Shown here: piece by piece, positions 1,681 through 52,354 of the stretch
Layout of the letters: the number at the start of each line of letters is the position of its first letter
How positions within the stretch are numbered: position 1 is the first letter of the stretch
NCBI GenBank assembly: GCA_964252035.1
Contig: OZ176201.1
DNA: 64,000 nt
Strand: one strand, 5' to 3'
Origin: Podarcis erhardii
Lineage: Eukaryota
Notes under the pieces: model-generated
Databases searched by the model: none
Told to the model about the DNA's origin: nothing
Seen by the model: the letters and a program-made list of their open reading frames with translations, nothing else
Position numbers and translations under genes: made by a program

Positions 1681-3810
1681 AGATTCTTTGCTCAGGGAGG
1701 AAACCGGGCCCATCTTCCTGGTGCTCTCAGGCCAAATATGTCACAACAGGTACCCTTGAAGGAGAGCAGCAGTGTGCGCATGATATCTCTCTGGATTTAC
1801 AGTTGTTAGTTACAAATGTACGGTAGCTTTCTTCACTTTGTGGATGCATGCTAGTGGAAGTGTTGTATGATAGGTAGTATAATAGGTAGACCCGGCCTAC
1901 ACAGCCTGTGATCCCCCTGCAAGGCAAACACAGTCCATGGATGGGTTGGCTTTGGCTTGTTGAGTCACAGGTTATACACTGGACATTTTCCATATGCTGG
2001 CCAGACGCATGGCATTCCAATGAAAGGAGTGAATAATTAACAAGCAAATATTTTTTGTTATCAACAATTTTCTTATAATAAAACACATATCAATGCATTA
2101 TACAAAATTTTGTGCTGAATACAAGAATAACAAAAGGCACGTATCATAACCAAAAGTTTTCTTAGCACCTGCCAAAGCAGGTTGTTGTTTTTTTTTTAAA
2201 AAAACCAGACTGTCTATTGTTATTAAAACACAATAAAAGCATATAATTTACAGTTTAAAAAGTGTGTTGCTAAGCTGAGAGAGGCCATAAAGTTTGTAAC
2301 CTTTTCTAGAACTTCAAGGTCCCACATTTTTAAGAGCTGGTCCTAGGATATTTAGAGGTGTTTTCACACATTACAGTAAGCTGATGTACAATCTGTGTAC
2401 ATACGGTAAATAGTTGAGCTGTATAGTATTCACATGTAACATTCAATGAGTGTACTATCTCTGTACGCAACAGTTTGGCCATACAAATCAACAAGGGTGC
2501 ACTCTTTGTCATAAACACTTGTACTTATATAGAGACAGCTTGCACATATATTCAGTATAACATGTGAACAATCTGGAAAGCTCAAATGAAAGGACCTCCT
2601 TAGGACTGTGAATTGCATACACACAGAATTTTGAACTGGGTTCAACATTAATTGTTCCAACAATGTTGGTGTTCATTTTATTTCTTTGTGCATCATCCAC
2701 ATGGTTTTTCTATCCATATGTTTCCACAGCGGTGTGGGAAGAAGCCACAGAGAAATGCCACCCATATTGCTCCAGTGCTGTGTTAGGTAGCCTCATGACA
2801 TGAACTCTGATGCAACAGTTGCAGGATCCCTGTGGCACCAAACAACCTAATCCACTGCAGCTTTGATATAAATGCAGACTCTGCCAGCTAGGCAGCTTGA
2901 GTGCCACTTCCATTGTTGGGTGGATATATTGTCATCTTGGAAGTTGCCCTTAAGCTGTTTCCTCAGAATATCTGGGAGCTTTCTTAGTGTAAGAAGAACA
3001 CTCACATTTTTGCTTTCGTCATTGCAATAAAAAGCAGATTGTGTGGTGTGGTCAGGGAAACTATATTAAAGTTTCAATTTAAATTGCAATTTAAGAAAGA
3101 GGAAGTATATTTGCAATTTTAAAGAAACAAAACTTTGGACAATCTCTGGTGAGTGTAAATATGGAAGAATCTCTCCCCCCCCCCCTCTCTTGGAAAGTGC
3201 TTTTTAGGGGCTACATCTGGTCTGCAGCTTCTCCCTGGTTCCATACAGCAGCCTGCTTGCTAATTGCTTGGATTATTTGCCTGGTAGTGCTTGTCACAAG
3301 AGTCTAGCCACGTGGAGGGCCTGTGCTGTCCTTTGCTGTTTTGACATTGGCTCAGCCATGAGACTCTTTCCCTACATCCAAGAGCTGCGTTTCCACCTCT
3401 TATTTCCCTGCTAACAGCTTTCTCCCGAAAGGGAGCACATTAGGGAAGTGAGAAGTTCACCCTGACTGCACCGGCTGGGAGCACACACAACAAGCTACCA
3501 AGTCACGTTGTTTTTGTTTTTGCTGTTGCCGCTGATCAGCTCTCAGTGAAGGGCCTTCCACTCCTGCTGCACATGCTTTCTCTAACTTCTTCTTTATTTG
3601 CTGGGATCTCATCAGTGAGAGGCAGCTGTCAATTCAGCCAACAAAATTGTCAGGCCCAAAGGAGAATCAGGGCTTCAGTTCCCACTCTTGATTTCTGCTC
3701 ATAACCCAACAGGTGGCTCTGTGGCTGCTGTTTGCACCCTTCCTTAAATGTTTCCTATGACATTGCAGTGGTTGTGAAAATGTGTGAAACAAGGGGTGGC
3801 ATTGAGCTAA

Positions 3811-4021
3811 GGCTGTGCACACATTACTGACTTTAAATGCAGCTAGGTTGTTGTTTTTCTTAATTCAGGTTGAAGCTGGTTTGAGGAAGTGTGTCAAAAC
3901 ACAGTATTTCATAAAAAAAAGACAGGTTATATATGGATTGTTTCTATCATGCGTACACTGCTTCCCAAACCAGTGGTGGGAACATACCGGATGCAGAGTA
4001 AACAGGCGTGTGTACACAGCC
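3811..4021. mobile_element. PIF/Harbinger MITE
   Basis: TIRs GGCTGTGCACAC / GTGTACACAGCC (11/12 match) flanked by the 3-bp TSD TAA on both sides. Confidence 0.8.
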
Positions 4022-6516: not shown

Positions 6517-7425
6517 TGAGGTCCACACCGCACAGATGCACCAGTGGAGTCAATCCAGCACTCCCAATCTTGCCGCTGCCTTGCCCCGCCCTGCAGCAAT
6601 GCTGATGTCAAGAGAGTGGCTCTGCCTCATCACATCAGCTGCTGCTAGGAATGAGATAAGACTGTATTTTAGATCTGAATTGGAGCTAGCAAATCAGGAA
6701 AAATATTTGCAAGGAGCAATCAAGAACGAACTCAGTTAGGGGGAAGATTGCTCACCAAGGGAAAGACTGTGTGGTAGGTGGTCTGGGTGCATAGTTCACA
6801 ACAATCCAAAAGAGTTTCATTGAGAGTAAGGACTTGAACATTAAATCATGTTTGCACATGCCTCTGAAAAGCTGCTGGGTTTGTAGATCATATCGTTTCA
6901 CAGCAATCAATGAGAATTTTTTTGAGAATCAGGTGGGGTGGAGCTACAGCAATAGCCACTTGACCCCAGCATTGCTGCCACTTACCAGAAAAGAGAGGCA
7001 GGGGCATCTGAGGTTTGAGCTGTGCAATTATGCACCAGTGGGAGCATCATATCACTGCTGCTTTGGTCCTCCCTGTCCTGATATGCAGTGACACTGCAGC
7101 CAGGAGGCTATTGTTGCAGCTCTGCCCTGTCAAGAGCTAACATTAAAGGACTTTTCCACATGGACCTACAAAGCAGCTTGGTCAGCCTGAGCTGGTGGAG
7201 CATAGTGGCTAAAAGACTGAGCCATGAATCAGAAAACCTCAGCCAACATGCATGTCCTTTGGATGACATTCCCCGTTAAATGGAGCCTACCAAACAAGGC
7301 TAGCAGTGGCCGCACTAGAGACTTCTACAGTCGTAGTGCCGGGGGTGGGGGGGGACTTGTCTTGCATCCTGGGGGTAAGGCTGAATCCTATAGCTCCTCA
7401 GCTTTTATTACAGGAGTCTGTAGTA

Positions 7426-20560: not shown

Positions 20561-23303
20561 TTTTTTTTTTAATTTCTCTTTATTAAGTTTCATTCTTCAC
20601 ATACTCACAAAAAAGTAAAACACAAAACATTAAATAAAAGATAAAAGAGCACCATCGCAAAAAGAAAAAAAGGGGACAGGTCAAAAAAGAGAAAAAATAA
20701 AAAAGGGGAAAAAAATAAACATTAGACCAATACAAATCACACACTATCTGACTTCCTTCCCTATTGATTTCGGATTTCTAATTTTTTAAAATATCACTTT
20801 TGCCGCTGATATTGATTATTAGTTTGTACATCGGAAGTTTTATATTAGACCTGCTATAGTTGGTAGGTTTTTAAAGTTAGTTTCTATATATGCCATGAAT
20901 TTAGACCAATCGTTATTCAACTTTGTATTCTTTTGTTCTCTGATTCTCTGCGTCATTTTTGCCAATTCGACAAAATCATATAGTTTTGTTTGCCACTCCC
21001 TTACGGTTGGTATATGCGTACTTTTCCAATTTTGAGCGATTAACATTCTGGCCGCTGCTGTTGAATATTGGAATAAAGTTTTATCTTCTTTCCTAATTTC
21101 CTCCCCAATCATACCTAATAAAAAGGCCTCTGGCTTTTTAGGGAACGTGTATCTAAATATTTTTTTTAACTCATTATATATCGTGTCCCAAAATTTTTTT
21201 ATTTCCCCACATGTCCACCACATGTGTATAAAATTACCTTCTTTTATTTTGCATTTCCAGCAGGCCTTATTACCAGTCTTGTACATCTTATTTAGTTTCT
21301 CTGGTGTTATATACCATCTGTATATCATCTTCTCTAAGTTTTCTCTGATTGCAACACTCGCCGTAAATTTTATTCCCTCATTCCACAGCTTTGACCATTT
21401 TTCATATTCTATGTTGTGCCCCAGGTCTATCGCCCACTTCACCATAACTTCCTTAATTTCTTCGTCTTTTGTATCCCAATCTAATAATATATTATACATT
21501 TTGGATAGTAACTTAGATTTACTTTCTATTATTTCTGTCTGAAATTTCGATTTCTTGTCATTCATTCCAATTTTTTTGTCTTCTGTCCATATTGCGTTGA
21601 TTTGATGATACTGTAGCCAGCTTGTCAATTTCCCCTTCAGCTCCTCATATGGTCTTAGTTTCCAACTGTCTTCCGATCTTATCAATAAATCTTCATATGT
21701 TAGTTTTGGCTCCTCCATGTTAATTTTTTTAATTATTAGGATGTTTGTTGGGGACAGCCACCAAGGTGTTCTCCATTCCAACAGCTTTTTGTTTTTTTCC
21801 CAGGCTTCATATAATGGACCCCTGATAATATGATTTGAGAACCCCTTGTGGGCTTTCTCCTTATTTGACCATAGGTAGGCATGCCAGCCAAACCTATTGT
21901 CTGCCCCTTCCAAGTCCAATAGGTCAGAATCTTCCAATGTTATCCAATCCTTAACCCAACATAGGCAGGCGGCTTCATAATATAATTTTAGGTTAGGGAC
22001 TGCGAGCCCTCCTCTCTCCTTTCGATCCGTGAGTAATTTAAATCTGATCCTTGGCCTCCTTCCCTGCCATATGAATCTTGAAAGGGTTTTCTGCCAGTCT
22101 TTGAATAATTTAGACCCCCTAATTACAGGGATGTTTTGGAATAAAAACAGCATTTTTGGAAGGACATTCATCTTTATTGCCTCCATCCTACCCATCCATG
22201 AGAGATTAACTCTATTCCAGACATCCATATCTTTTTTGATTTCTTTCCATGTTGTCGAATAATTGTCTTCAATTAAATTTATATTTTTTGATGTAAGCCA
22301 TATTCCTAAATATTTTATTTTTTTTGCTACCAATATACCATATTTTCTCTCTAATTTTTCTTTTTCCACCTTTCCTAAATTCTTTATTAGCATCTTTGTC
22401 TTTAATTTATTCAATATAAAGCCTGATGATTTACCGTATTCTTCTAAAGACTCCAGCGCTTTACCAATGCTTCTTTGCGGCTCTTCCAGGGATAACATCA
22501 GATCGTCCGCATAGGCTTTTAACTTGTATTCCTTCAGTCCTATTTTAATTCCTTGTATTTCTGGTATCGATCTTAATTTGTTCGCCAGAACTTCAAGCAC
22601 CATGATGAATAAGAGCGGGGAGAGAGGGCACCCCTGCCTTGTTCCCTTCTCTATTTTAAATGTATTTGTAAGATTATTATTTATTACCAATTTTGCCAAT
22701 TGTGTTGAATATATTGCCTGTATTCCTTTTAAAAATTCTCCCTCTATCCCAGCCTTTTCCATAGATTTTATTAAAAACGCCCAAGAGACATTATCGAACG
22801 CCTTTTCGGCGTCTATGAAAATCAGTGCCGCCGGTATCTCATTGTTGATCTCTAAATACTCAATTATGTTTATAACATGTCTTACATTGTCTTTCAAAAA
22901 CCTGTTCGGGAGGAAACCCGCCTGGTCTTTATGGATTAAATTTGCTAAACACTTTTTCAGTCTACTTGCCATGATGTCTGCATATATTTTATAGTCATTA
23001 TTTAATAGAGATATTGGCCTGTAATTTTTAATGTTCAATTTATCTGTGTCCGGTTTTGGAATTAACGTTATAAATGCCTCCCTCCAAGACTCAGGTATTT
23101 TTCCTCCTTTCAGGATATTATTCAATGTCTTACAAAGCGCTGGTGTCAATTGACTTTCCAAAACTTTATAGTATTTTGCCGATAAACCATCCGGTCCCGG
23201 AGCTTTCCCTAACTTCATTTTTTTAATCGCCTCCTGAATCTCTTCTATTCTTATGGGTCTGTTTAGTTGAGATCTCTCTTCTTCTGTTACAGTCTTTCCT
23301 TCA
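20561..23303 (-). mobile_element. Very young 5'-truncated L1 retrotransposon (2.74 kb)
   Basis: Poly(A) as T10 at 20561-20570, about 270-nt 3'UTR, uninterrupted ORF2 fragment, perfect 18-bp TSD CATTTTAACCAGATTATC at 20543-20560 and 23304-23321. Confidence 0.97.
20840..23303 (-). CDS. L1 ORF2 fragment: reverse transcriptase + C-terminal Cys-rich domain, endonuclease missing
   Basis: Motifs KAPGPDG, NYRPISLLNNDYKI, DAEKAFDNV, GTRQGCPLSPLLF, YADD, KYLGI and CWKC...HMWWTC; no stop or frameshift; first internal ATG at 23218 (792 aa to TAA at 20842-20840). Confidence 0.95.
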
Positions 23304-23760
23304 CATTTTAACCAGATTATCAACAACAGCAGCAGCAACAAAATATATAACAATGAGAGAAGTTGAGTCTATTCAGTATTAAGAGGTGCCACTGCATTCT
23401 GTGATGTCCTTGAAGAATGTGCAACAAGTCAAAGTAGAAACTTGCTGGAATAATGGCTGCCTATAGATAGAATGCACAATTCAAAGGCTCTGCTGTTATA
23501 CACTGGCAAATGGTATTTGCAACACACAGGTTCTACAGAAAGAGTTCCCAAATATCTTATTAAGGATAATTTCCTGTGTTACGCATAATGCTACTGAATT
23601 AACCTTATAAGGACAGCTTTAACATATCTTCATGATGCTTATTATTTGCCTGACAGGATAGTAGTCTAGTAATATGTCAACTTCACCCCTGACCTACCTT
23701 CCTTCCTTCCTTCCCAGATATGTAATAAATTTAGCTCTGAGCTCACATATCATGAGAGGA

Positions 23761-27963: not shown

Positions 27964-28735
27964 GGAGGGAAGCCCAGTGCTTTATATCCTCGGTGTGGAT
28001 GTGACCACAGCACTCCATGCCAACTGAACAAGCTCACTTTTTACTTGGCTGCTTTTTAATGGGACTCTTCTCCATTTGAGATCATATACAGGGCCAGGGA
28101 CACTTGTAGTGAGTCCCAGCAATATTAAAATCTTGGATTTCTCTTTATTTCTATGGACAGCTCTCAGTTCTGTCCCCATGGATGTTTGAAAAGAGCTCCT
28201 CAATGTAAATCAGGAAATGAACTATTCAGACAGCAATATAATTCTCTCTACCCTTTCCCATCTTTCTTCATTTTCCCTTTCCAACCATTACATTCACCCT
28301 CCCACCCACATTTGTGTGAGAAGCACCCAAAGACTTGGAAATAGAGGGAATGTTAATGATACACACAGGATTGAGTAGGTAGCATGTTCCACACTTTAGT
28401 CTCCTGTGGCATCATTTTATGAAGTTTGCAACCGTAAATATTATTACATGGTCTCAGAAGAGAAACTGACAGGAAAACAAGGAAGCAAAGATGAACCAGC
28501 TCATTCTCCTGGAATGTTGGTGTTTAAAGTAGAGGCGGCAGAGATCTGGAGGCTGTAGAAACACAAGCATTTGAGTAACACTGCACTGCAAGTGGAGCAG
28601 ATAAGAAAGATGAGAGACTTCAGTCAGCTCTATTTCTTCATATGGCAGGTGAAGATGCAAGATATAGATTGAATATTATTATTTCAGTTTGATGACGATG
28701 CAGATGCATCGTCTGTATAGCCAAAAGTAGGGTGG

Positions 28736-29257
28736 TGTCAAGAGCCAGAGTCAGAAGCAGGTCAGCAATAACTCACAAGGTGTCAGTGAAGGTAACTCTT
28801 TATTCAAAGAAACCAAAACAGTGCAACCCTAGTGATCACAGCAGCTGCAAGGACTGAAGGTCTCTGCTGTTCCAGCACTCTCTAAGGCTCCTCGCCTGGT
28901 TCATTCCGCAGAAGCCTAAGAGTGCTTCATCTTCTCTCTCTTTGCTCTGCCCTCTTCATGTACTGGGAGACCAGGGGAGAGGGGAGCTTGTCACAGCAGG
29001 AGGAGGAGACTCCCTGGATTCTTCAGCAGCCTGCCTCATCTCTGTCTCCTGGCCCCTGTCTTCTCCTGCCTCTGTCTGGACTGCCCTCTGCACAGCCTCT
29101 TCCTGCTCATTAAACCCTGTCACCTCTTCTGCTTCTGACACCTCCTATTCCCAGTCTGCTCCCTCTGGCCATGCACTGTTATCATACCACCAATCTCCTG
29201 GCTTCTTCCCTAGCTGGTGCCTCCCACCACTCCTCTGCAACCAGCCAGTCCATGACA
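28736..29257 (-). mobile_element. Solo LTR (Gypsy/ERV-like, TGTCA...TGACA)
   Basis: 5-bp inverted termini, perfect 5-bp TSD GGTGG (28731-28735, 29258-29262), AATAAA on the minus strand near 28800; homologous to 51756-52354. Confidence 0.92.
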
Positions 29258-29349
29258 GGTGGCTCCATACTCATGGACAAGGACAAAAGGACACAGATAT
29301 GCATCAAGTTTACATATCCTAATGTATGGATGCATATTTATAAATAATA

Positions 29350-29580
29350 ATAAATAGAAATGCATTGGGGTGAAGACTGTGACCAGGTGACCACCTCAGT
29401 CTGTGGCTCAGTTGCTCACTGTTGATGGCTGTCATCAAGGCATCTGCTCACCTTTCTGGGGTTTCTTTCTCTTTCATCTGGACTTGGATCAGATAGCAGC
29501 ACAGATACAGGATTGTCCTCTAACAGTACATCACACTAGAAGTCTGTCCTCTATACAATGGGGATCACACCTATTTAAGG
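29350..29580. repeat. Unclassified dispersed repeat, related to 1440-1680
   Basis: Shared collinear motifs (see the 1440 entry). Confidence 0.55.
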
Positions 29581-51755: not shown

Positions 51756-52354
51756 TGTCATGGACTGGCTGGGTGCAGAGGAGTGGGTGGTGGGAGGCAC
51801 CAGGTGGGAACCCCCCAAGGGAAGAAGGCTCAGGGCCAGAGGATGGGTGGTGGGACGATGATGCATGGTTAGAGGGAGAAGAGGGACCAGACTGGGAGGA
51901 GGAGGTGTTGAAAGCTGAAGAGGAAACAGGGTTTAGTGAGCAGCAAGAGGCTGTGTCAGAGCAGTGCAGACTCTGAGGCTGAAGTGGAGGCTGGAGAGGA
52001 AGGGGGGCAAGAGGTAGAGATGAGGCAGGCTGCTGAAGAAGCCAGCGAGTCTCTCCTTCCTTCTGTGACCAGCTCCCCTCTCCCCTGGATTCCCAGAACA
52101 CACAGATAAATGAAGAGGGTGGAGCAACGAGAGACAAGACGAGGGAGTCTTAGGCTGCTGGAGAGGAGCCTTAGAGAGTGGTGGATGGTGGGGATCTTCA
52201 GTCGTCAGAACTGCCTCATTAGGGCAAGACCTACTGGGAAGAGTTGCTGTAATCACTAGGCCTGCGCTTTTTTGGGTTTCTTTGAATAAAGAGTAAACTT
52301 TGCTGACACCGGTGTTTTTTATTGCTGACCTAGTCCTGACTCCAGCTCCTGACA
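51756..52354 (+). mobile_element. Solo LTR (same family as 28736-29257)
   Basis: TGTCATGGACTGGCTGG...CTCCTGACA, AATAAA near 52286, 5-bp TSD GAAAA / GAAAC. Confidence 0.9.

Follow-up and report, generated by a model that had tools for sequence, protein, structure and literature searches.

Does a solo long terminal repeat (LTR) in a lizard genome contain a gene of its own and, if not, what is the reading frame that opens almost at its first base? The question is raised by one LTR in the window, that is, in the whole 64,000-nucleotide stretch of Podarcis erhardii DNA that was analysed. The original prediction proposed that this LTR family carries an accessory open reading frame (ORF). The relevant features of the window are the following.

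28736..29257, minus strand: solo LTR of family 1 (LTR A), 522 nt, with TG...CA ends
29258..29262, minus strand: upstream copy of the 5-bp target-site duplication, CCACC on the minus strand
28731..28735, minus strand: downstream copy of the 5-bp target-site duplication, CCACC on the minus strand
28882..29256, minus strand: decayed frame running from LTR nt 2 to a family-wide TAG (28884-28882), probably the C-terminal tail of Pol/integrase
29251..29253, minus strand: ATG at LTR nt 5-7, probably an internal methionine codon and not a start
28960..29250, minus strand: acidic, Trp-rich and then Pro/Ser-rich part of the LTR A frame
28909..28959, minus strand: basic C-terminal segment, MKRAEQRERR*STLRLL in LTR A
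28799..28804, minus strand: AATAAA polyadenylation signal, LTR nt 454 of LTR A
51756..52354, plus strand: second solo LTR of family 1 (LTR B), an independent insertion, 599 nt, duplication GAAAA/GAAAC
51757-52174, plus strand: LTR B reading frame, with two shifts and one in-register stop

LTR A has the attributes of a solo LTR, namely TG...CA ends, a target duplication that is perfect over 5 bp at both flanks and a polyadenylation signal, with no internal region. The span first assigned to it, 28731-29262, contains a real LTR, but the LTR proper is limited to 28736-29257 and the remainder consists of the two 5-bp duplications. The ATG announced at LTR nt 5 is present at nt 5-7 (window 29253-29251), and all the peptide pieces quoted with it were located in LTR A. 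Relative to the columns shared by the family, LTR A displays length changes at LTR nt 53, 97, 167, 184, and 299. The frame is broken by those at nt 53, 167-184, and 299, and two in-register stops are present at 29147-29145 and 28929-28927. This copy itself does nothing now. The upstream junction of LTR A (window 29209-29500) is spanned by contigs from four runs carrying four organism labels. Since the runs are labelled as four different organisms, the insertion is old and shared. Elsewhere in the window, the minus strand of 20843-23368 holds an 842-codon open frame that resembles, by eye, a fragment of a LINE ORF2 reverse transcriptase. LTR B had been regarded as the partner LTR of the same element. 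Its location on the opposite strand and its own duplication indicate a separate solo insertion, and its peptide, described as lying in one register, is interrupted by the shifts and the stop listed above.

Family 1 was represented by 3,770 and 4,044 first-look candidates in two genome searches (about 4,000), with 40 candidates scored from each. The alignment comprised 79 copies displaying a pairwise identity of 79%. A 5-bp target duplication matching at 4 or 5 of 5 bases was detected for 20 of 56 copies, and full matching at 4 or 6 bases for none of the 56. Family 1 is an old family, and the named database matches, both to it and to the younger family 2 described below, are Podarcis lizards. 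Read from LTR nt 2 (Val, then ATG), the 79 copies share a register of 138 codons devoid of any shared stop, defined as a stop common to at least 40% of the aligned copies, until column 416. Over the same span, the other two forward frames contain 7 and 3 shared stops, and one antisense frame is likewise open. Thus, the frame of about 135-150 codons proposed to cover most of U3 is real at the level of the family, with about 140 codons. Under a first-order Markov null based on the composition of the family 1 copies, a given frame remained open in 0.6% of cases (15,000 trials), at least one forward frame in 1.8%, and at least one of the six frames in 19%. Purine-rich low-complexity composition, which the original prediction had named as a possible refutation, is therefore a poor explanation of the given frame (P = 0.006), although not of an open frame in any of the six. 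Of the 66 copies that cover nt 5-7, 51 have the ATG there. Decay is general: none of the 60 copies spanning the frame was free of shifts and stops, the means being 2.0 shifts and 2.2 stops per copy. In the natural copy L015, the acidic part comprises 101 residues, including 32 D+E, 5 K+R, and 7 W.

Selection on family 1 was assessed with transversions, which sidestep CpG effects. Transversions common to at least four copies were synonymous in 15 of 50 cases versus 15% expected (p = 0.006). The corresponding proportion was 14% for singleton transversions, and 7% and 10% for the shared ones read in the shifted frames. The coding selection sought among shared changes was accordingly detected as a synonymous lean confined to the nt-2 frame. 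The N/S ratio was about 1 for single-copy variants, as expected for decay after insertion, and about 0.7 for variants present in at least four copies. An excess of minor alleles at third positions did not reach significance (p = 0.07 and 0.12). With respect to length, the recurrent multi-base variants located in the frame were +12 (14 copies), -9 (12 copies), -3 (6 copies), and +12 (19 copies), and the large recurrent variant located 3' of the stop was +8 (12 copies). The recurrent multi-base variants located in the frame are thus all multiples of three, but single-base variants recur there too: -1 in a C run (17 copies), +1 (7 copies), and -1 (6 copies). Together, the 138 codons without a shared stop and the synonymous lean of the shared changes indicate that the reading frame of family 1 once coded; it is dead today.

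The internal region of family 1 was not found by three pattern searches, a DNA search, and a protein search. A tblastn search of young Pol against the flanks of family 1 copies also gave no match. A guessed self-priming PBS pattern led to 19 matches, none beside a family 1 LTR, and these were attributed to chance since the reversed control gave 8. Several candidate bodies were rejected. L261, L271, and L275 have purine-rich flanks without a pol remnant, and the PPT-like flank of L261, ranked 5th of 43, did not stand above the others. L062 resembled a PPT-linked copy, but the DNA upstream of it belongs to a different old repeat into which it had inserted. At L273, the possibility of a family 1-related LTR attached to a Mag-like pol was discarded since this pol is flanked by different LTRs of its own and terminates more than 1 kb away. 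L273 nevertheless provided the best DNA match of family 1 outside itself, an unlinked LTR at position 6846 (E = 7e-14). This diverged LTR (L273:6846-7445, G000:C1:91471345) is preceded by a purine run, and neither a pol remnant nor a target duplication was found there. At the protein level, a search of 1.84 billion representatives with the family 1 tail yielded no more than 8 short fragments derived from gene calls. Longer proteins sought with the natural copy L024 were absent from 1,936 candidates. A Pfam scan of three tails matched no family, and a protein family for the LTR product, which the HMM databases might have held, was thus not recovered from Pfam.

Judged from sequence, the closest sister family of family 1 with a link to pol is family 1b. 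Comparison of the two profiles in register gave a probability of 94.7 (E = 5.9e-8) end to end, over columns 1-130 versus 1-97. Six mixed-frame control pairs scored 0.24 or less, and two same-shift pairs 66.6 and 2.4. The 1b DNA profile matched 38 of the 79 family 1 copies at E < 0.01, versus none of the 79 in five local shuffles. The two families are thus homologous. At 14 old 1b-type loci linked to a chromodomain, LTR nt 2 was in the frame of the chromodomain in 8 cases, shifted in 3, and unplaced in 3. The codon at LTR nt 5-7 of 1b is mostly Arg. The nt-2 register is devoid of shared stops over 106 codons in 1b and 130 codons in family 2. Scores of family 1 against single tails of family 2 or of a third family, Y, did not exceed those of shuffles, and kinship with these two families is therefore limited to register and layout. 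Profile A2, which covers only the acidic part, was rejected as a test of relatedness because it did not separate related tails from shuffles.

Family 2 is a young chromovirus family discovered in the flanks of family 1 copies (L054:272-830, L089-L118, L206-L211), with 2,849 first-look candidates and 797 matches to a PPT-plus-LTR pattern, overlapping matches being counted repeatedly. Its LTR starts with TG-TG-ATG, the same layout as in family 1. In five of the six elements fetched, a chromodomain, G-D-G, and V-M-A-W-D-S ... RRSARL were read in a single frame through the PPT, the open frame beginning in the integrase or the chromodomain; in the sixth (L209), the frame is broken upstream. Since the chromodomain and RRSARL are read in one frame, the ATG of family 2 is an internal methionine codon of Pol. 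The Pol of L210 contains the Pfam domains RT, RNase H, integrase, SH3_Tf2-1, and Chromo, and a UniRef Pol of 1,240 residues named for Podarcis muralis holds the family 2 tail at 96% identity. Among 30 solo LTRs of family 2, an open frame of 128-130 codons that terminates after a RRSARL-type motif persists in 22; premature stops occur in 4, and the other 4 remained unplaced. A TATA-like GATAAA contains the Pol stop codon of L208. The tail is under purifying selection, its acidic part included: dN/dS between natural copies was 0.37-0.61 (about 0.4), as compared to 0.08-0.10 for the integrase and 0.97-1.4 for the tail DNA read in shifted frames. An ESM Atlas search with the tail returned no usable match. 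An AlphaFold model of the chromodomain plus tail, based on 5 near-identical rows, had a mean pLDDT of 46 with the chromodomain unfolded, and the helix predicted over the basic segment carries no weight.

The search was extended with PF24626, the Tf2-type integrase SH3 domain, and 30 loci were examined. In-register read-through across the junction into the 3' LTR at nt 2 was found in 12 of the 30, and many of the remaining loci are broken. In one chromovirus lineage (L134), Pol halts before the PPT, indicating that read-through is not universal. Half of the 30 loci, and many protein-search rows, lie on contig C19 of G000. Such crowding of older chromovirus bodies is expected of a low-recombination or sex chromosome. 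A very young member of family Y (L149, G000:C6:803500-810500, minus strand) has identical 396-nt LTRs and a pol frame of 1,376 codons ending at nt 290-292 of the LTR, a pol length recurring in many rows of the PF24626 search. As Pol ends past the predicted self-primer, the whole of U3 is coding in family Y. The basic part of the Y-lineage tail has a pN/pS of 0.33 (p = 2e-7), and constraint between Y lineages is strongest there. The codon at the position of the family 1 ATG is mostly Arg. Pol thus runs into the LTR in families 2, Y, and 1b. Families 2 and Y match the Tf1/sushi group by their domains, including Pfam Chromo and SH3_Tf2-1, and by a self-complementary PBS (10-11 nt of PBS/LTR complement in 4 of 4 elements). 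The domain set of the relatives comprises a Ty3 capsid, protease, RT, RNase H, integrase, SH3_Tf2-1, and chromodomain, with 5-bp duplications. Several lineages (L124, L126-L133, L140, L142, L291-L305) have a long acidic tract with repeated FEGF/FRGF-like words between the chromodomain and the PPT. The acidic linker is therefore coded before or inside the LTR, depending on the lineage. A further LTR family, open in the nt-2 register and with a basic end, was seen on the minus strand of L046 (about 1385-870), and L288 carries a tail similar to that of the L046-type LTR, linked to a chromodomain.

We consider, with a probability of about 0.75, that LTR A, a solo LTR now dead, once coded in its first ~415 bases for the C-terminal tail of Pol, and hence of the integrase, of a Tf1/sushi chromovirus. 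In intact relatives, no stop separates the chromodomain from the LTR and the U3-coded tail has 70-130 residues; by eye, the tails have a common layout in which a linker that is acidic or rich in Pro is followed by an S/T-P site and a basic run. In these relatives, the frame is therefore continuous with the internal region. No body was found for family 1, and we infer Pol read-through in family 1 itself from its relatives. The source element would have had a pol frame leading from the integrase through the SH3 domain, the chromodomain, and the polypurine tract to nt 2 of the 3' LTR and beyond. The Pol of family 1 would thereby have gained about 140 residues, comprising an acidic linker rich in Trp and Pro, followed by an S/T-P site and a basic segment, and its tail would be the longest of the set. 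Of the two LTRs of an element, the 3' one alone is translated, and recombination between the LTRs gives rise to solo LTRs. Translation would thus have involved the 3' copy only, reverse transcription would have placed the sequence at both ends, and recombination would have produced solo LTRs by the thousand, each retaining a fragment of pol that lacks its head.

The explanation initially put forward, a stand-alone accessory ORF comparable to sag or nef and read from the nt-5 ATG of a spliced or internally started 3' LTR RNA, accounts for the ATG in 51 of 66 copies, for a frame spanning U3, and for the lack of a pol link in family 1 itself. It does not account for the relatives, in which the same register continues Pol and the ATG position is occupied by an internal Pol methionine codon (family 2) or mostly by Arg (1b and Y), so that neither a conserved start of its own nor a stop separating the frame from pol is seen. 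Four of the first five bases also belong to the integrase attachment end TGTCA, and in a 5' or solo LTR, U3 is situated upstream of the LTR's own start site. The only protein matches were the 8 fragments mentioned above, with no Pfam match. We regard this explanation as improbable. Chance opening of a frame in purine-rich low-complexity DNA is by far the least credible possibility and is largely refuted. The strong G/A skew, the 19% of Markov trials with some open frame among six, and the open antisense frame speak for it. They are outweighed by the use of this exact register by Pol in three related families, by the low probability for the given frame, by the restriction of the synonymous excess to it, and by the opening of 1b and family 2 in the same register.

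Another alternative is that the tail was already a vestige, family 1 being non-autonomous or LTR-swapped and its inherited Pol tail remaining untranslated during the burst. No body was found for this family of ~3,800-4,000 candidates, whereas a like search linked hundreds of family 2 LTRs to a PPT, and the selection signal of family 1 is weak (N/S of about 0.7 for shared variants). On the other hand, the synonymous fraction of shared transversions is double the expected one, exclusively in the nt-2 frame, and the large length variants of the subfamilies leave the frame intact, indicating that translation took place while the subfamilies of family 1 diverged. With copies that are only 79% identical pairwise, bodies may have been lost or missed by exact patterns. 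A vestige is unlikely, if slightly less so than an accessory ORF. The Pol-tail reading remains the one that we adopt.

What might such a tail do? Our best guess, held at roughly even odds, is that the basic segment served in nuclear import of the integration complex or in its docking to chromatin next to the chromodomain. The resemblance of the basic end to the RRSxRL motif, raised in the original prediction, is unevenly distributed. The literal motif was found in 2 of 75 family 1 copies and in 15 of 30 family 2 copies, and was not seen in 1b or Y. Family 1 reads SLRL, preceded by two codons that are variable, as methyl-CpG sites are. Young family 2 has an exact RRSARL followed by K or Q and then A. 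RRSxR words also follow a linker, acidic or rich in Pro, at the end of the integrase in a Copia element (L064, LRRSDRKRQKP) and in the Mag-like Gypsy element of L273 (VRRSSRSCRTP). Such a word may thus be a general feature of integrase tails, as it is present in two unrelated young LTR elements. Binding of the tail to the nucleosome acidic patch is putative and, in our estimate, rather doubtful. Equally tentative is the broader idea that lizard Tf1/sushi chromoviruses code a second chromatin-docking integrase module within their own promoter, with RRSxRL engaging the acidic patch and the chromodomain reading histone marks. If this were true, the LTR of each lineage would be a dual-coding unit swapping promoter and targeting tail together.

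The Pol-tail reading would explain why thousands of solo LTRs resemble genes and have seeded short false gene calls, such as the 8 fragments found among the protein representatives. Like plant CRM, vertebrate chromoviruses code an integrase tail in the LTR; it occupies 48-74% of the LTR and is subject to purifying selection. To our knowledge, chromatin access and site choice of vertebrate chromoviruses have been little studied. The young families with identical LTRs supply natural tail peptides, one of them with an exact HMGN-type RRSARL, which are directly testable.

The viral precedents for coding in U3, sag of MMTV and nef of HIV, are also read from the 3' LTR; they are separate genes, with their own start and a spliced RNA, whereas the frame of the lizard relatives is continuous with pol. 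The literature covered, with Repbase, Dfam, and some key papers outside its scope, provided no description of Pol read-through into the LTR of a vertebrate chromovirus or of an HMGN-like motif on a retrotransposon integrase. The HMGN nucleosome-binding motif is RRSARLSA, and HMGN-like motifs have been reported in Dsup and Dot5 (PMC13347269). Three arginines of the RRSxRL pattern are essential. The family 2 tails, with RRSARL followed by K or Q and A, are similar to the HMGN motif; family 1, with SLRL after variable codons, and families 1b and Y, devoid of the motif, differ. The Tf1/sushi group of chromoviruses (bioRxiv 10.1101/2022.12.06.519325) shares with the relatives, rather than with any body of family 1, the domain set, a self-complementary PBS of 10-11 nt, and 5-bp duplications, but extension of Pol over half to three quarters of the LTR is not described in the cited part of that source. 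The young families match the Sushi LTR start, TGTYANR (PMC3601003), and family 1 nearly does. Among plant elements, Bingo1-4 and Bingo7 of Beta vulgaris have an ORF extension into the flanking LTR, which Bingo5 and 6 lack (PMC3605345). This mix of lineages is also found in the P. erhardii genome, although the Bingo elements are those of a plant and the cited part of the source does not address how long the extension is, its composition, selection on it, or its function. A further parallel is group A of plant CRM, in which the coding sequence runs on into the 3' LTR, as in the lizard relatives, and the CR motif is located there (PMC3059260). In CRM group A, the CR motif replaces the chromodomain and priming relies on tRNA-Met, whereas the lizard relatives have retained a chromodomain ahead of the PPT and are self-priming, which places them outside this group. 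They add a tail of 70-140 residues that is likened to CRM by its arrangement and not by the sequence of the CR motif. Extension of Pol into the 3' LTR is thus known in kind from plant chromoviruses, and the lizard case is a variant of it.
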